Source of the DNA: Enterobacteria phage vB_EcoM_IME340
DNA: 64,000 bases
Strand: one strand, 5' to 3'
Sequence record: MH051916
Made by a program: the position numbers and the translations under genes. Positions 13,754 through 22,054 of the stretch are shown in pieces. Within the stretch, counting starts at the first letter, position 1. The number at the start of each line of letters is the position of its first letter. The notes beneath the pieces were generated by a model. It did no database searches. It saw only the letters and a program-made list of their open reading frames with translations, and was not told where the DNA came from.

Positions 13754-14215
13754 ATGATTATTAATGAAAACTCTTGGCACTATAAATTATTCAAATTGTT
13801 TAACGATGAATGGCAACGACCTAAGACACTATGCGCATATTTTTGGTCTATTGCCATACCTACATTTTTCGTTTCTATTTTTGGGTGTGCTATACTCGTA
13901 GGGTTAACAATTATTTGTGCAGAAAGCCTACAACGTTGGCTTATTTTCGGTAGTTTATGGACTCTTCTTCCATCGGCATTTATACTTGCGCTTTTGGTTG
14001 TTTTACTTATTATCGGTTCATTTGTTATTCCTGCACATTTGCGTGAAAAATATAAAGATTATAAATGGAAAAAGGATTATGCTTTACACGTAGAAAATAT
14101 TGATAGGGCGTATAAAGGTTTACCTCCTATTCAACCCAAGAAATCGATTATCGTTGAATTTTTAAAAGCTCGTAAAGCTAAAGTATGTCCTGTTATTGAA
14201 TATAAGGCTGAATGA
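13754..14215 (+). CDS. predicted membrane protein (153 aa)
   Basis: 2-3 hydrophobic helices. Confidence 0.55.
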   Translation: MIINENSWHYKLFKLFNDEWQRPKTLCAYFWSIAIPTFFVSIFGCAILVGLTIICAESLQRWLIFGSLWTLLPSAFILALLVVLLIIGSFVIPAHLREKYKDYKWKKDYALHVENIDRAYKGLPPIQPKKSIIVEFLKARKAKVCPVIEYKAE

Positions 14216-15225
14216 TGAAAACAGTAATGAAAAGCTATTTTGGTAGTCATCTTTATGGAATTTCTACTCCAGAATCTGATGTAGATTTTAAAGAAATCTT
14301 TGTTCCTCCTGCTCGCGATATTCTTATTGGAAACGTCAAAGAGCACATGAGTAAAAACACTAACAACACATCATCTAAAAACACTAAAGATGATATTGAC
14401 CATGAACTATACAGTCTTAAGTATTTCTTTAAATTAGCAGCAGATGGTGAAACTGTAGCATTGGATATGCTTCACACTCCACCTGAACTAGTGGTTAAAT
14501 CTGATTTGCCTGATGTGTGGAAGTTTATTCAAGACAACCGTTCTCGTTTTTATACGACTAACATGAAATCCTATTTAGGATATGTCCGCAAGCAAGCTTC
14601 TAAATATGGTGTTAAGGGTTCTCGTTTGGCCGCATTGCGTGATGTATTGAAAGTAGTTAATCAAATCCCCGATCAGTGGGTTGATTACCGAGAAGATGGA
14701 ACACAAGGACAACGTCGTACTAAAATTGCAGATATTAAACACCGTCTTCCAGAAAACGAATTCTGCGAATGGGTATTTCATAATCATGAGAAAACAGGCC
14801 CGCAAACGTTCTATACTGTGTTGGGTCGTAAATATCAGACAACGCTTTCTCTTATTGAGCTTAAGCAGTCTTTGAATAAACTTGATGCTGAATATGGTGA
14901 ACGCGCTCGTAAGGCTGAAGCTAATGAGGGCATTGACTGGAAAGCTCTGAGTCATGCTTGCCGTGGTGGACTCCAACTATTGGAAATTTACAAAACTGGT
15001 GACTTAGTCTATCCACTTCAAGACGCTCCATTTATTCTCGACGTGAAGTTGGGTAAACATCCATTTAAAACTGTTCAAGAGTTTTTGGAAGATGTGGTCG
15101 ATCAAGTAGAAGCAGCATCCATTGAAGCTTCTAAGAACGGTATGCAGCAAAAAGTAGACATGGGTTTCTGGGATGACTTCCTTGAGAGGGTTTATCTTGA
15201 AAACCACCGAAGTTATTATAAATGA
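14212..15225 (+). CDS. nucleotidyltransferase-fold (Pol-beta superfamily) protein (337 aa)
   Basis: N-terminal GSHLYGISTPESDVDF fits the G[SG]x(9-13)D-h-[DE]-h NTase signature. Confidence 0.6.
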   Translation: MMKTVMKSYFGSHLYGISTPESDVDFKEIFVPPARDILIGNVKEHMSKNTNNTSSKNTKDDIDHELYSLKYFFKLAADGETVALDMLHTPPELVVKSDLPDVWKFIQDNRSRFYTTNMKSYLGYVRKQASKYGVKGSRLAALRDVLKVVNQIPDQWVDYREDGTQGQRRTKIADIKHRLPENEFCEWVFHNHEKTGPQTFYTVLGRKYQTTLSLIELKQSLNKLDAEYGERARKAEANEGIDWKALSHACRGGLQLLEIYKTGDLVYPLQDAPFILDVKLGKHPFKTVQEFLEDVVDQVEAASIEASKNGMQQKVDMGFWDDFLERVYLENHRSYYK

Positions 15226-15306: not shown

Positions 15307-15340
15307 ACAACTATCAACTGATACGGATTTGGAGAATAAA

Positions 15341-16309
15341 ATGAAAACTGTAACTATCAATAAGGGTATCTACTTCGGTAAAGAAATCTCTGGAACTTTT
15401 GAGCTCTTAGGCGAATGGTTCCCAGATAATGCTCCGGTAGATGCACAAGGAGATGGTAAAGTTTTTGTTGAAATTGACGGTAAACGTCGCGGTGTTTGGG
15501 TTTACAAATCAGATATTTCATATGATGGTGTAAAAGTTGAAGAAGTTAAAGAATCGTATGAAGATATGAAAACCCGCATTAATAAAAGATTTAATGTTAT
15601 GGGAATGATGACGAATGGTATTATTAATGGAAATATTCGTTCATTAATTATCTCTGGCGCAGCAGGTATTGGTAAAACGTATTCTTTAGATAAAGCTTTA
15701 AATAAAGCAAATGATAATGGATACATTGAATATAAAAGCATTAATGGTAAAATCTCTGGTATTGGTCTTTATGAGCAGCTTTGGAATAATCGTGAAGAGA
15801 ATTCTGTCCTTTTGATTGATGATGTGGATGTTTTTTCTGATATGGACATTCTTAATCTTCTGAAAGCTGCTCTGGACACTGGAGAGACCCGTAAAGTCTG
15901 CTGGAGCACTGCATCTTCTTACTTAGAAGAAAAAGGCATTGACCGTGAGTTTGAATTTAAAGGAACGATTGTTTTTATCACAAACGTTGACATTGACCGC
16001 GAATTAGACCGTGGTACTAAACTTGCCCCACACTTACAAGCATTAGTGTCACGCTCAGTTTATTTGGATTTGGGTGTTCACACTAATGAAGAAATTATGG
16101 TCAGGGTTGAAGATGTTATTCTTTCAACTGACATGATGCAAAAGCGCGGTCTTTCTGATGAAGAAACTTATAAAGCATTATCATGGATGAAAGTTAATGT
16201 TAATCGTTTACGCAATGTTTCACTGCGTACTGCTCTTTATCTTGCTGACTTTATTATGACCGACAAAAACGGTTGGGAAGAAATTGCTGAGGTTACTCTT
16301 CTGAAATAA
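15341..16309 (+). CDS. AAA-type P-loop ATPase (322 aa)
   Basis: Walker A GAAGIGKT, Walker B LLIDDVD; start at ATG after GGAG SD. Confidence 0.65.
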   Translation: MKTVTINKGIYFGKEISGTFELLGEWFPDNAPVDAQGDGKVFVEIDGKRRGVWVYKSDISYDGVKVEEVKESYEDMKTRINKRFNVMGMMTNGIINGNIRSLIISGAAGIGKTYSLDKALNKANDNGYIEYKSINGKISGIGLYEQLWNNREENSVLLIDDVDVFSDMDILNLLKAALDTGETRKVCWSTASSYLEEKGIDREFEFKGTIVFITNVDIDRELDRGTKLAPHLQALVSRSVYLDLGVHTNEEIMVRVEDVILSTDMMQKRGLSDEETYKALSWMKVNVNRLRNVSLRTALYLADFIMTDKNGWEEIAEVTLLK

Positions 16310-16715: not shown

Positions 16716-16745
16716 GTTTACAAGACTGTTCCTCTGTGGTACTAT
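16716..16745 (+). promoter_or_regulatory. early promoter (repeat family)
   Basis: GTTTACAAGACTGTTC...GGTACTATACAACTATCAACT, as at 41702. Confidence 0.6.
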
Positions 16746-17301: not shown

Positions 17302-17356
17302 CCGCTTTATACCAAGGATGGTATAATGGTTCTAAGCCCTTTTAATTGAGATTATT

Positions 17357-17771: not shown

Positions 17772-18662
17772 ATGTCAGTCGTAATTAATAATGTCAATGC
17801 AGTAATTAAATCTTTAGTTAATAAAAAAATGATGAATGAATGGACTGTATTTCGTCGTGGAGAGCCAGATAAATTTTTTCATAGATTTAACCCAACTTTG
17901 GATTTGAATGTTATTGACAGAGATGTTCATGCCGAAATTTTAGATAAGTTTAAAGTTGATATTGGCTTTGGATTAGAAAAACATTTACAGCGAACAAATG
18001 GGTCTGGAATGAGTTTATCTAATCGCATTATGAAAGCCCTTAATAAAATTGGAGCGTTGTCTCGTATTAATGCGAGTGAAATCCTTCGTAATTATAATAA
18101 AGGATATGACCTTTATGGTCGACTAATGCCGAAATTATCATTCGATCAAATGATAGCGGATTTGTGGGAAAATCAACGACGATTATTAGCATTAGGCGCT
18201 CGATTAGCTAAAGGTCTAGATAAACAAATGATTTTTAAGACCAATAATACAGAAGACCTTAAATGCTTTAAATTTAGTATTCGTGGAGATGATTATTACA
18301 TCAGAGCTCGCTCTACAGATTATGTTAATATGGGGCATCATCTCTGTTTGGCTTTTGAAGTTTTAAAAGAAGCTGGAACATTAGAATATTCATCTGGTGC
18401 AAAATGCCCTATTGGTTCAAGTTGTATTTTAATTTATCGCCCGGATGAATCCAGTTCAACTAAATTGCCTACGAAACCTGTACCAGTTCGTAGTAACGAA
18501 AAACATTCTGAACAAATTGATTATTTTAATAAACAGATTGAAGAGCTGAATATTTCTATTCAACAATATGACGATGAAATTTTCAGACTATCTGGATTGA
18601 GTAGTAAAGCTAAATCTGAGCGTGAAAAGTTAATTAAAATTGTTGATTTACTTAAATCTTAA
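17772..18662 (+). CDS. coiled-coil-tailed protein, tandem family member 1 (296 aa)
   Basis: start at ATG after GAGGAAAAT; globular N-domain plus C-terminal heptad region. Confidence 0.55.
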   Translation: MSVVINNVNAVIKSLVNKKMMNEWTVFRRGEPDKFFHRFNPTLDLNVIDRDVHAEILDKFKVDIGFGLEKHLQRTNGSGMSLSNRIMKALNKIGALSRINASEILRNYNKGYDLYGRLMPKLSFDQMIADLWENQRRLLALGARLAKGLDKQMIFKTNNTEDLKCFKFSIRGDDYYIRARSTDYVNMGHHLCLAFEVLKEAGTLEYSSGAKCPIGSSCILIYRPDESSSTKLPTKPVPVRSNEKHSEQIDYFNKQIEELNISIQQYDDEIFRLSGLSSKAKSEREKLIKIVDLLKS

Positions 18663-18670
18663 GGAACACT

Positions 18671-19699
18671 ATGAAAACTCGTTCTCAAATTGAAGATATG
18701 GTTCGTAACGCTAGCGATACTCGTGATGTTATGACATTTTTGTGTGAAAATAATTTAGATTTTGATAAAGTTAATCGTGCTATTCATCACTTTAAATATC
18801 TGAATAGCAGTGAATGGGTGCGTAATTTTAGTAAAGCAGGGTATATTACGCAAATGACTGCTCGTGAGCAGCTCACCGATTTCTGTAAAACTATTGATTA
18901 TAAAAATCCTCTATTTGTTCAAGGCGTTGGTCAAAGTAAGGTCAATTTATCATCTGGATTTTTCAATCCAAATCATTATCGTATTGAATGGAGATTTATT
19001 GCTCTGTTCCGTAGACAATTAAAGCAAATTTTATCAACTGCGAGTCGATTAAAAGGTTCTGATATTAACTTAAAGAATCTGAAATTTGATGGTTATACTC
19101 TTCAGATGGAAGTAAGACCATTAAAAGAAAATAATAGAACCGCACGAATTAGCTTTAAACCTAATACAAAAAATTCTCTTTCAATTTGTGAATGCCTTAA
19201 ATCACAGTTGACAGAAGCATTTAAGTATATGGATGTTGTTGCTGGTGTTCAGTCTAAGATTTCAAAGCATTTCGAACGATTTAAATTAGACACAACAACA
19301 TATGAACTTGATATGATCGTTTCATTTAAATACGATTTTTTGAGAAAGGATGAAGTCACGCAAGAGAAAAAGCAGGAAGTGCAAGATAACTTAAATTTAA
19401 ATTTATCCAATTACTCATCAAACGATCCTAAATTTTGGATGTATAGTTCAGGTAATAAGGATGCATGGAAATTCAATAAAGTGAATTTTCTTCCTGTTGA
19501 AAATCCGAGTCTTAAACCTGTTGAAAAATGGCATGCTGATGCGATTGAGAAGTCTATCAAGGCAGTAGATGATGAACTCGTTAAAGCAACTAATGAAGTG
19601 TTAGAAGCTGAAAAGATGTTAGAAAAAGCTCAAGAAAAAGTCAAAAATCTCACGAAGCAACGTTCTAAACTGAACAATGCACTAAATGCACTGAACTAG
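18671..19699 (+). CDS. coiled-coil-tailed protein, tandem family member 2 (342 aa)
   Basis: N-terminus MKTRSQIED; QILSTASRLKG motif; C-terminal coiled coil. Confidence 0.55.
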   Translation: MKTRSQIEDMVRNASDTRDVMTFLCENNLDFDKVNRAIHHFKYLNSSEWVRNFSKAGYITQMTAREQLTDFCKTIDYKNPLFVQGVGQSKVNLSSGFFNPNHYRIEWRFIALFRRQLKQILSTASRLKGSDINLKNLKFDGYTLQMEVRPLKENNRTARISFKPNTKNSLSICECLKSQLTEAFKYMDVVAGVQSKISKHFERFKLDTTTYELDMIVSFKYDFLRKDEVTQEKKQEVQDNLNLNLSNYSSNDPKFWMYSSGNKDAWKFNKVNFLPVENPSLKPVEKWHADAIEKSIKAVDDELVKATNEVLEAEKMLEKAQEKVKNLTKQRSKLNNALNALN

Positions 19700-19728
19700 T
19701 TTACTTTACCACAAGGATGTGGTATAAT
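19699..19728 (+). promoter_or_regulatory. early promoter (identical copy at 63946-63975)
   Basis: GTTTACTTTACCACAAGGATGTGGTATAAT. Confidence 0.6.
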
Positions 19729-19756
19729 GTTCTTACTTTCTACTGAGGAGATTAAT

Positions 19757-20758
19757 ATGACTCGTAACGAATATATCAAATCATTCAACAGCGTTATTGA
19801 TGATAAAGCTATACCGATGTTTGGCCAAAATAGCGTTATTTCCATTATCAATCAATGGCTCAATAGTGTTGACGCAAGTATTGTTTCTTCTGTTAAATTT
19901 ATTCATGAAATTCGTAAAATTTCTAGCCGTGTAGATAAAGATGTTATCAAGAAAGCCTTTAAAGAGTCTCGTCTTCTTTCATATTTGGTTAATCGGGATA
20001 TTCTTGGTAATTTTGGGAAAGAAATTAAACGAACCAAAGATGTAGTAGGATATAATTGGTTCGGTGATGTTAATTCTTATCATCTTAATGTCAAAGAAGA
20101 CCCCGAGAATATTTTTACTCGTCGTTGGATTAGTAATTTCAGACTTTTCAAAGGACAGATTCTAAAATCAGCTTCTAAATTATGTTATGGCGATTATCGT
20201 CAAATTCATCCTTTGGCTTCTGATATGATTATCATAAAAGAATATGAACTTGATAAAAATAAAGTATCTATTTTTGTGAATTATGGATTTTTTACACCAG
20301 AAACTAATCAAAAGAACATTAATAAATTTTTCTCAATTGCTAGCACTATAACTCGTCAATTAGAGACTGCACTACTTTGTATGGAAACGGTAGAAAATAT
20401 TCATACTTATCCTTTTAAGAATATGTGCGGTTGGGAAGGATATAAAATTGTAGTTAGTCTTCGTGAAGTGAAATGTGCTTATTCACCGACTGATAAAGAA
20501 ATTTACCAACAAAAATGTGATGAAATTGTGAATACTCCTAAAGAAGAAACTACACTTGAGGAACTAATGGATAATCTTGATGATTCGCCTGAACCCGTAG
20601 AAATTCGTCCAGAAGTTATTGCACTAGAAAAAGCTTATAAAGAAGCTCTAGAAATTTCTAATAAAGCGCAGAAAGAATATGAGCAGGCTAAAAGGATTTG
20701 GGAAGAATCTGTTAATCGCCTTGATCGTTTAGAACAAGCTTTACAGTTAATTAAGTAA
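19757..20758 (+). CDS. coiled-coil-tailed protein, tandem family member 3 (333 aa)
   Basis: start at ATG after GAGGAG; QILKSASKL motif; C-terminal coiled coil. Confidence 0.55.
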   Translation: MTRNEYIKSFNSVIDDKAIPMFGQNSVISIINQWLNSVDASIVSSVKFIHEIRKISSRVDKDVIKKAFKESRLLSYLVNRDILGNFGKEIKRTKDVVGYNWFGDVNSYHLNVKEDPENIFTRRWISNFRLFKGQILKSASKLCYGDYRQIHPLASDMIIIKEYELDKNKVSIFVNYGFFTPETNQKNINKFFSIASTITRQLETALLCMETVENIHTYPFKNMCGWEGYKIVVSLREVKCAYSPTDKEIYQQKCDEIVNTPKEETTLEELMDNLDDSPEPVEIRPEVIALEKAYKEALEISNKAQKEYEQAKRIWEESVNRLDRLEQALQLIK

Positions 20759-20810
20759 TTTAAAGCCAAGGATGGCTCGGAGTATAAATCATTAACCAAG
20801 TGAGAAGAAC

Positions 20811-21740
20811 ATGAAAACTCGTAAACATTATATTGATTATTTTGATAGTCTTATTACTAAACACCGTAATTATCAAATCGGGCACAGAGCAGTAATCAAT
20901 AATATTCTTCGTGATTTCCTTCAATATGTTGGCCAAGAAAATCATATCTGTAAAGATACACAGAACGCTTATTCTCATTCGTTGGGCAATTTGCTTGAAT
21001 GGTTTAAACGTTCTCGTATGTTATCTTCTACTGTAGCTCGCGATAACATTAAAAACTTTATGAAGCCGAGCTTTATTAAATCTGAGACATCTATAACTGA
21101 TTTGGTTGAATTTACTATTGTTAACGATGTTAAAAAGACTCATTTGGCTGATTGGTTATCTACCATTCCTGAAACTAAATTTGCTGATAAATTTGCTTGT
21201 CAATTCAATGACCAAGTGAATATGCTTTTTAAGCATGCTCGCAAACTGTTTACTGCGGGCGATGACCGTACAAATACAGTTCATGTTAAGGACTGGGTTA
21301 TTGCTGATGAAGTAACACACAAGCCAGGTGGTTCATCAGTATTAATTAATATCCAGGTTCCTTATTATTACTCACGTAATCTCGGCACCATGACAGCTAG
21401 AGAAATTAATAAGCACAACAAAACTATTCGTTCGTTATCTTATAAACTTCGCATGATGTTAAAAATCATGGACGTAGTAGAAATGTATGACGAAACCGAA
21501 AATAATGGTTCAATGTTATACAGTTCACGTATTCTAATTAAACTGAAGAACCCTAATACATATAAGCCAGTTGTAAAAGAACCTAAAGTAGAAAAGGTTG
21601 ATAACCTGAGCGAAGAACGCGAATATCTCAATGCTCGTTTGATTGAAGTTGAAGCCCAGATTGCCGAACACACCAAATTGTTAAAAGCTCTTAATGCAAA
21701 AGCAAATGGTTTACGCAATGCTATTGAGGTATTGAAATGA
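20811..21740 (+). CDS. coiled-coil-tailed protein, tandem family member 4 (309 aa)
   Basis: N-terminus MKTRKHYID; C-terminal coiled coil. Confidence 0.55.
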   Translation: MKTRKHYIDYFDSLITKHRNYQIGHRAVINNILRDFLQYVGQENHICKDTQNAYSHSLGNLLEWFKRSRMLSSTVARDNIKNFMKPSFIKSETSITDLVEFTIVNDVKKTHLADWLSTIPETKFADKFACQFNDQVNMLFKHARKLFTAGDDRTNTVHVKDWVIADEVTHKPGGSSVLINIQVPYYYSRNLGTMTAREINKHNKTIRSLSYKLRMMLKIMDVVEMYDETENNGSMLYSSRILIKLKNPNTYKPVVKEPKVEKVDNLSEEREYLNARLIEVEAQIAEHTKLLKALNAKANGLRNAIEVLK

Positions 21741-22054
21741 AAAAGCGTCTATTAGAAGATATTGCAGCTTCAAGTAATTCCAGTCTAATTAAAATTATTA
21801 TGGCTGGTGAAGAAGACGATCTGGAAATGCGTGGAAAGATTCATGGTTGCGATGATTTAGACTTTAAACCTCCAGCCTGGGATGCCATTATGGTTATGGT
21901 TGAACGCCGCGAAAGGGCTTCTAAAAACGTTCCTAATTGCCCTGAATGTGGAACTGAACAGGTTCAATTAATTCATTGGCAGACTAGTAATCTTCGTTAT
22001 AAATGCCGTCATTGCAAACATCGATTTGAGAGAGAAGAAAATGACCAAGCGTAA
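21737..22054 (+). CDS. zinc-ribbon protein (105 aa)
   Basis: CPECG-x15-CRHCKH four-Cys ribbon. Confidence 0.55.

Follow-up and report, generated by a model that had tools for sequence, protein, structure and literature searches.

The nrdC.6 to nrdC.2 block of a T4-like phage: ancient, diverged paralogues with a probable role in counter-defence

Roughly half of the genes of T4, the reference phage, still lack an assigned function. The locus described here raises the question whether four consecutive genes of a T4-like phage descend from one ancestor, and what they and the small gene behind them do. The genes lie in a stretch of 64,000 nucleotides from Enterobacteria phage vB_EcoM_IME340 (sequence record MH051916), referred to as the window. 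They belong to the T-even accessory block nrdC.6-nrdC.5-nrdC.4-nrdC.3-nrdC.2, here within a Tequatrovirus (T4-like) genome. Judged from profiles, bridging sequences and structural models, NrdC.3 to NrdC.6 are one superfamily of ancient, strongly diverged paralogues, which turned up in T4-like phages (Straboviridae) only. Of the four, NrdC.5 alone has a known function. We consider it reasonably likely that the family as a whole consists of non-essential host-range genes that serve counter-defence, together with the coupled gene nrdC.2. The genes and the role of NrdC.5 were already known; uniting three database families and their relatives from other genera into one superfamily, with the coupling of NrdC.2, is a modest addition.

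Relationship of the four proteins

The ~6 kb surrounding the array are 96-97% identical to many Tequatrovirus genomes, in which nrdC.6 to nrdC.2 are annotated at matching positions. In these annotated relatives the array lies downstream of nrdC.11 to nrdC.7 and upstream of nrdC (glutaredoxin), gene 49 and nrdD. The identity to the T4 proteins is 98.6% for NrdC.6, 93.9% for NrdC.5, 95.8% for NrdC.4, 61% for NrdC.3 and 87.7% for NrdC.2. As a preliminary description of the window had stated, four plus-strand open reading frames (ORFs) of 296-342 amino acids (aa) follow one another, at 17772-21740, and a 105-aa ORF with the motif CPEC...CRHC comes after them. NrdC.5 matches the Pfam family DUF7235 (PF23882) with 415.9 bits against a cut-off of 30, covering residues 1-342; the Pfam search gave no DUF7235 match for NrdC.6, NrdC.4 or NrdC.3. 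NrdC.4 and NrdC.3 both match the phrog_1435 profile over their full length, and homologues of NrdC.4 carry PF26897. NrdC.6 matches phrog_2257, likewise full-length, and its homologues carry PF26899. The set is split into three families in current Pfam, and in PHROGs NrdC.4 and NrdC.3 stand together while NrdC.6 and NrdC.5 each have a family of their own.

At the level of single sequences, one pair stands out: NrdC.4 and NrdC.3, its nearest paralogue, align by BLASTP with an E-value of 7.7e-8 (25% identity over 275 aa, shuffle z of 12.8). The other pairs were at chance level by BLASTP and by Smith-Waterman alignment with shuffles, and the tails alone, aligned pairwise with shuffles, reached z values of 3.3 or less, most pairs lacking significant similarity. 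Profile-profile comparison by hhalign joined NrdC.4 with NrdC.3 (98%, E 3e-14) and NrdC.5 with NrdC.4 (90-92%, E ~1e-6, over the globular part). NrdC.6 is the most divergent of the four; direct hhalign comparisons of its family with the others were non-significant (P 0.004-0.24), though they kept a consistent register on two motifs. We then used 911 ORFs from the syntenic region of 29 related loci, covering eleven or more genera, as a search set for bridging proteins. The hidden Markov model (HMM) of NrdC.6 matched PM2_092 of Pectobacterium phage PM2 (3e-7) and VPA32_085 of Klebsiella phage VPA32 (1e-7), each the single large gene adjoining nrdC.2 in its phage, as well as gp94 of Yersinia phage fHe-Yen9-01 (2e-4). 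PM2_092 was also matched by the NrdC.5 HMM (5e-4), and an iterated search from NrdC.4 took in NrdC.3, a protein of Klebsiella phage TU02 and then NrdC.5. The expanded NrdC.6 group aligned with the NrdC.4/3/5 group at 97% (E 5e-11) and, after removal of the last 65 residues, still at 93% (E 3e-7), spanning motif A to motif B. In the globular part, homology was thus found for NrdC.4 with NrdC.3, for NrdC.5 with NrdC.4, and, with bridging sequences, for the NrdC.6 group with the rest.

Two unrelated neighbour families that served as controls, including NrdC.8 with its helical C-terminus, scored below 1% in the same hhalign test. As candidate family members, nrdC.8 and a conserved 262-aa neighbour of other genera were both rejected (hhalign below 1% in each case). 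A well-conserved protein of 258-263 aa is encoded just upstream of the single NrdC.3-6-type gene in phages PM2, TU02, CF1, VPA32 and fHe-Yen9-01; it is 47-77% identical between genera and unrelated to the superfamily and to nrdC.8. An exhaustive representative search with the NrdC.5 profile returned 13 clusters and no cross-family match, in keeping with a small family, and a search for related loci in viral contigs found close relatives only.

Two of the paralogues were modelled with AlphaFold2, with a predicted local distance difference test score of 80 for NrdC.6 and 83.5 for NrdC.4. The order of elements is identical in both models: six N-terminal helices, three motif-B helices, a beta-hairpin, a long helix, a second beta-hairpin, a disordered linker and C-terminal helices. 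In the NrdC.6 model these form a helical N-lobe, a beta-hairpin/helix/beta-hairpin domain and a C-terminal helical hairpin, and the NrdC.4 model has an additional three-stranded insertion. Foldseek comparison with viral models returned seven uncharacterised proteins of 300-335 aa common to NrdC.6 and NrdC.4 (E 1e-4 to 1e-8), from phages PM2, IME523, fHyAci03, Acj9, Acj61, Mineola and fHe-Yen9-01. Structure searches found no known fold or solved relative for the array proteins. On this reading each of the four proteins would probably consist of a helical N-lobe with motifs A and B, a beta-hairpin/helix/beta-hairpin domain, a flexible linker and a heptad-repeat C-terminal helix. The consensus is K-x-[SG]-[RG]-h-h-S...A-x-x-x-L-x-x-F for motif A and Q-x-L-x-x-A-[SA]-[RK]-L-x-x-G-D for motif B. 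The motif QIL[SK][ST]AS[RK]L that had been pointed out for the second and third members is present, as QILSTASRL and QILKSASKL respectively. The heptad-rich C-termini described earlier are also borne out: over the last 49 residues of all four proteins the hydrophobic fraction at heptad positions a and d is 0.71-0.93, a periodicity reached by 0 to 29 of 2000 shuffles, and long C-terminal helices appear in both models. All four tails end in a similar L-x-x-A-h-x-x-L-K pattern.

One alternative, which we regard as improbable, is that NrdC.6 is not a true homologue, its helical lobe and coiled coil having arisen by convergence, so that the array would hold three paralogues and an unrelated neighbour. 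The non-significant direct profile comparisons would fit this, as would single-sequence z values below 1.5 for the globular part of NrdC.6 and its separate family in Pfam and PHROGs. Two further points weigh against its membership: the link is drawn from predicted structures and from bridging sequences, which were scored in a small targeted database, and the template modelling scores to the shared Foldseek targets are low (0.3-0.5). On the other side stand bridging proteins significant to the NrdC.6 and NrdC.5 profiles alike, the alignment of the expanded groups over the same motif A to B core even without tails, the common element order with its seven shared targets, and the failure of NrdC.8, itself a coiled-coil-containing neighbour, in the same comparison. 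We therefore take the paralogy to be real, with moderate confidence that it includes NrdC.6. The preliminary description of four diverged paralogues is thus upheld by profiles, bridging sequences and the element order of the two models, and fails at the single-sequence level beyond NrdC.4 and NrdC.3; the profile alignment and structure prediction that it had proposed gave statistically supported similarity, in the case of NrdC.6 only via bridging proteins.

Many GenBank records name the nrdC.2 to nrdC.11 homologues 'thioredoxin'. None of the five proteins matched a Pfam or NCBIfam family of thioredoxins or glutaredoxins, and the NrdC.6 and NrdC.4 models show helical and beta-hairpin domains instead of a thioredoxin fold. 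The label seems to have been carried over from the gene name. Searches with PADLOC and NCBIfam matched nothing meaningful.

Copy number, alleles and selection

The full four-gene set is normal in Tequatroviruses, ~90% of whose records keep all four genes. The phage collection holds ~500 Tequatrovirus-level matches to NrdC.6, 494 to NrdC.5 and 466 to NrdC.4; NrdC.3 is present in 652 records, Mosigvirus counted. Among genera the copy number is 1, 3 or 4. Dhakavirus and Gaprivervirus have nrdC.6, nrdC.5 and nrdC.4 without nrdC.3. Mosigvirus G53 has NrdC.6-like (32% identity), NrdC.5-like (24%) and NrdC.3-like (78%) proteins without NrdC.4, and phages PM2, VPA32, CF1 and TU02 have a single member. 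Losses also occur in individual phages: ACG-C40 has a deletion running from nrdC.5 into nrdC.3, LYE-01 lacks nrdC.4, nrdC.5 is split in Ec_YwIITB1, and nrdC.4 is split in T2, G8 and one metagenomic genome. In a 299-aa database protein (P0056), residues 146-271 of NrdC.5 are joined to the C-terminal half of NrdC.3 at ...KFNKVN|MLFKHARKLF..., as if nrdC.4 had been lost through a deletion between the two paralogues. The array thus varies in copies and alleles across related phages and is not strictly conserved, the comparison that the preliminary description had called for.

Several further arrangements were noted. A 173-aa metagenomic protein (P0231) carries the last ~53 residues of NrdC.5 unchanged behind 120 N-terminal residues, for which no match was found in the window, the fetched loci or the phage collection; the idea that it marks a Tequatrovirus variant in which the NrdC.5 tail bears a new head was dropped, as the phage matches are ordinary or split nrdC.5 genes. 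Two entries of the structure database BFVD from Acinetobacter phage Acj61, E5E4A1 and E5E4A2 (330 and 304 aa, consecutive accessions), both match the NrdC.4 model and may represent a tandem pair that arose independently in this phage. An additional ORF of 67-71 aa, absent from Tequatrovirus, lies between the nrdC.6-like and nrdC.5-like genes of Dhaka- and Gapriverviruses.

Within Tequatrovirus, nrdC.3 occurs in two allele classes that are ~61% identical, with a synonymous divergence (dS) of ~1 vs 0.1-0.25 in the flanks. The class in the window is the one missing from T4. The window's NrdC.3 is 78.7% identical to the copy of Mosigvirus G53 vs 61% to that of T4, whereas for the flanking genes the identity to T4 is 94-99%. 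Recombination between genera seems to have replaced the allele.

We calculated gene-wide ratios of nonsynonymous to synonymous divergence (dN/dS) for the four genes within Tequatrovirus. They were 0.03-0.14 for NrdC.6, 0.11-0.23 for NrdC.5 and 0.13-0.23 for NrdC.4. For NrdC.3 the ratio was 0.04-0.14 within and ~0.3 between allele classes, so that the overall range for the family is 0.03-0.31, compared with 0-0.12 for well-conserved neighbour genes. The family is under purifying selection, somewhat relaxed relative to its neighbours. The duplications are ancient: no two of the four proteins exceed 25% identity, and other genera have their own orthologues of the separate members. Purifying selection and ancient duplication together indicate that the present diversity stems from old divergence, allele replacement and loss, and not from ongoing diversifying duplication or recent positive selection; the earlier suggestion of diversifying tandem duplication as an active process is not supported.

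The role of NrdC.5, its relatives and NrdC.2

An evolved T4 clone with compensatory deletions was unable to infect the strain ECOR17, and the deletion mutant could again infect dsr1-bearing cells when these expressed T4 nrdC.5 from a plasmid (Srikant, Guegler and Laub, 2022; PMC9391042). T4 NrdC.5 thereby overcomes Dsr1, a SIR2-type defence protein that depletes nicotinamide adenine dinucleotide (NAD; PMC9391042). NrdC.5 has been described as an early gene. For a homologous Dsr1 (EcDsr1), a 2026 preprint reports that the major capsid protein of phage ZL19 acts as the trigger of its tetratricopeptide repeat (TPR) sensor (PMC12803255). By its 93.9% identity and its slot between nrdC.6 and nrdC.4, the window's nrdC.5 is the orthologue of this experimentally tested counter-defence gene. 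The preliminary description had spoken of proteins that track variable host targets; this fits NrdC.5, which published work shows to set host range and to counter Dsr1, and it is a plausible reading of the other three.

NrdC.2 has its two CxxC pairs at residues 68-71 (CPEC) and 90-93 (CRHC). It matches many zinc-ribbon models, all below their gathering scores, the best being DUF7129 with 22.7 bits vs 30, and nine homologues, which come from seven other genera, retain the cysteines. The identity of NrdC.2 is 42-69% across eight genera (Tequatro-, Dhaka-, Gapriver-, Mosig-, Mosuguk-, Karam-, Moon- and Jiaodavirus), while the paralogue that adjoins it is roughly 15-25% identical between genera, far below NrdC.2. 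In the window the start of nrdC.2 overlaps the stop of nrdC.3 (ATGA), and in most of these genomes it overlaps the stop codon of whichever paralogue is last (ATGA or similar). The exceptions are TU02, with a 20-nt gap, and the ime09 record, which annotates a later nrdC.2 start; in fHe-Yen9-01 the gene at this position does not encode a zinc ribbon. The conserved overlap suggests that NrdC.2 is functionally partnered with the last paralogue. Within Tequatrovirus, NrdC.2 itself falls into allele classes (67-72% vs 88-94% identity when the window is compared with loci L006, L009, L010 and L012). The N-terminal half varies, whereas the putative zinc ribbon stays the same, and the match between these classes and the nrdC.3 allele is not strict.

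We propose the following model for these genes. NrdC.5, made early, would bind Dsr1 ahead of the capsid-protein trigger, which is made late, and the coiled-coil tail would supply oligomerisation and avidity. NrdC.6, NrdC.4 and NrdC.3 may be sister inhibitors of other host immunity proteins. The translation of NrdC.2 would be coupled to that of the last paralogue, and the two proteins probably act together. The family diversifies through old duplication, recombinational allele replacement and frequent loss.

The four heptad-rich tails with their similar ends would also fit another reading: the four proteins, perhaps with NrdC.2, might form a single hetero-oligomer through their tails, with a single function of which the anti-Dsr1 effect is one read-out. 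The genes follow one another closely in one orientation, the great majority of Tequatrovirus records retain the complete set, and NrdC.2 is probably coupled to the last member, all of which would suit such a complex. We nevertheless consider it improbable. Plasmid-borne nrdC.5 alone rescues the deletion phage on dsr1 cells (PMC9391042), which would count against the complex; single members are naturally lost or split in LYE-01, T2, G8 and Ec_YwIITB1, other genera manage with one or three, and most pairs of tails lack significant sequence similarity.

Counter-defence by the whole family has itself to be weighed against several observations. For NrdC.6, NrdC.4 and NrdC.3 it is deduced from distant homology, at 25% identity or less. 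Searches of the literature found no function or other name for these three proteins or for DUF7235 and no function for NrdC.2; they also found no mechanism for NrdC.5 and no report of direct NrdC.5-Dsr1 binding. No gene-wide positive selection was found (dN/dS <0.35), which an arms-race inhibitor might show, and NrdC.6 is 97-99% conserved within the genus, unusual for an inhibitor that tracks its target. Three of the four paralogues are basic, with isoelectric points of 9.2-9.4, which would also suit nucleic-acid binding. From this last property an alternative can be built in which NrdC.6, NrdC.4 and NrdC.3 are host-takeover or nucleic-acid-binding factors (in transcription, the nucleoid or RNA handling) that share only ancestry with NrdC.5. 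The strong conservation and low dN/dS of NrdC.6 would agree with it, and an RlaP-type nucleotidyltransferase and a P-loop nucleoside triphosphatase (NTPase) are encoded nearby. Searches of Pfam, NCBIfam and the PDB, however, found no nucleic-acid-binding family, and the genes are dispensable and patchy like other T4 host-range genes (PMC9391042), so that we hold this alternative to be unlikely.

Our preference therefore stays with nrdC.3 to nrdC.6 as non-essential host-range genes with a probable part in counter-defence. A bolder version, which we put forward as doubtful, would make the superfamily a set of modular immune-sensor blockers across T4-like phages, each with a variable head and stalk for one host sensor of phage structural proteins (e.g. 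TPR capsid-protein sensors of the Dsr1/Avs7 type), with NrdC.2 as an obligatory partner or regulator. If this were true, the three uncharacterised paralogues would reveal new targets among defence systems. Through their link to NrdC.5, NrdC.6, NrdC.4 and NrdC.3 become testable counter-defence candidates, and the candidates extend to relatives in Klebsiella, Acinetobacter, Pectobacterium, Citrobacter and Yersinia phages. The core motifs, the coiled-coil tail and the putative zinc-ribbon partner offer handles on how Dsr1 is blocked, and the natural copy-number and allele variants are ready material for host-range comparisons relevant to phage therapy cocktails.

Gene signals, neighbours and comparison with known systems

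The positions of the genes, conserved cores and related features are collected in Table 1. The MKTR starts reported for the second and fourth members are present. For nrdC.4 the true start is most likely 19757, which gives a protein of 333 aa that begins MTRNEY, because the alignment to the PHROG model begins at residue 11 of the long ORF, homologues begin MTRNEY, and a promoter-like -10 hexamer overlaps the upstream ATG. This hexamer belongs to a T4 early-type promoter-like element that is followed by GAGGAG, the whole spanning ~19699-19750; the scan lists TTTACT at 19700. Own promoter-like or Shine-Dalgarno signals had been ascribed to three members. Shine-Dalgarno sequences precede all four genes, whereas a strong consensus promoter lies directly upstream of nrdC.4 only, where it would be a putative early promoter by its sequence match. 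Over the region, promoter-like matches numbered 30 vs 28.3 in shuffles, i.e. no excess. The spacers 5' of nrdC.7 (17302-17356) and nrdC.4 (19700-19756) share the early-promoter-like sequence CTTTA..ACCAAGGATGGTATAATG, with an alignment score reached by 0 of 2000 shuffles. A third such element, GTTTAC-17-TACTAT, lies upstream of nrdC.8 at 16717-16745. The spacer upstream of nrdC.3 was rejected as a duplicate of the nrdC.4 promoter region: only an 8-mer is common to both, equalled by 103 of 2000 shuffles.

Further upstream, nrdC.11 (14215-15222) matches the RlaP nucleotidyltransferase family (RNA repair pathway), and nrdC.10 (15338-16306) encodes a P-loop NTPase that resembles STAND-type NTPase models weakly, below threshold. 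Between these two genes, an ADP-ribosyltransferase (ModB-like) gene is found in ACG-C40 (L007 388-1407) and CF1 (L026 1155-1640); ACG-C40 also has a DUF4031 gene there, and Dhakavirus AnYang has, in the same place, an opposite-strand gene annotated 'tail needle knob' (L004 2044-2802).

Table 1. Features of the nrdC.6 to nrdC.2 block in the window and corresponding positions in related loci (L numbers).
Feature	Position	Strand	Description	Basis
nrdC.6	17772..18662	+	296 aa; ATG with GAGG Shine-Dalgarno	ORF; phrog_2257 E 1.9e-152; homologues carry PF26899
nrdC.5	18671..19699	+	342 aa	Pfam DUF7235 E 1.5e-124; phrog_2351
nrdC.4	19757..20758	+	333 aa from likely start; ORF open from 19727 (343 aa)	phrog_1435 E 1.1e-167
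nrdC.3	20811..21740	+	309 aa	phrog_1435 E 3.2e-117; BLASTP to nrdC.4 7.7e-8
nrdC.2	21737..22054	+	105 aa; CPEC...CRHC	ORF; phrog_1474
NrdC.6 conserved core	18018..18230	+	aa 83-153; motif A IMKALNKIGALSRINASEILRNYNKG, motif B NQRRLLALGARLAKGLDKQ	hhalign
NrdC.5 conserved core	18803..19069	+	aa 45-133; motif A WVRNFSKAGYITQMTAREQLTDFCK, motif B RRQLKQILSTASRLKGSDIN	hhalign
NrdC.4 conserved core	19937..20200	+	aa 61-148; motif A VIKKAFKESRLLSYLVNRDILGNFGKE, motif B FKGQILKSASKLCYGDYRQ	hhalign
NrdC.3 conserved core	20988..21269	+	aa 60-153; motif A LLEWFKRSRMLSSTVARDNIKNFMKP, motif B QVNMLFKHARKLFTAGDDRT	BLASTP and hhalign to NrdC.4
T4 early-type promoter-like element	19699..19728	+	GTTTAC ~19699-19704, 17-nt spacer, TG-extended TATAAT	sequence scan
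NrdC.3 comparison loci	window 20811-21740; L032 4557-5483 (T4); L005 4998-5945 (Mosigvirus G53)			
Extra 67-71 aa ORF	L002 5811-6026; L003 5724-5939; L004 5730-5933			
258-263 aa neighbour	L022 3943-4728; L024 4353-5141; L026 5312-6100; L027 3443-4219; L023 3779-4570		phages PM2, TU02, CF1, VPA32 and fHe-Yen9-01	

Among characterised systems the closest is T4 NrdC.5 itself (DUF7235, PF23882; PMC9391042), to which the window's nrdC.5 corresponds by orthology, full-length Pfam match and genomic slot. NrdC.6, NrdC.4 and NrdC.3 share its core motifs and probably its architecture but differ from it in sequence (25% identity or less) and in their Pfam and PHROG families (PF26899, PF26897). DSAD1, an inhibitor of DSR2 from SPbeta-like phages, neutralises a SIR2-type NAD-depleting defence protein via direct binding (PMC10973363, PMC11087589), and by analogy this mode serves as the working model for how NrdC.5 may act. 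Accessory clusters of T4, namely the dmd-tifA-adfA 'anti-TA (toxin-antitoxin) island' and the internal proteins IPI to IPIII, are likewise non-essential, host-range-setting, deletion-prone and variable among T-even phages (PMC9391042). They consist of unrelated small proteins, whereas nrdC.3 to nrdC.6 encode four larger multi-domain proteins of one ancestor. In anti-CRISPR loci, variable inhibitor genes adjoin a small, better conserved aca gene. The well-conserved NrdC.2 beside a variable paralogue may be likened to this arrangement, as an analogy only: the aca product is a helix-turn-helix protein and a separate regulator gene encodes it, whereas NrdC.2 is a putative zinc-ribbon protein, probably coupled in translation to its neighbour.

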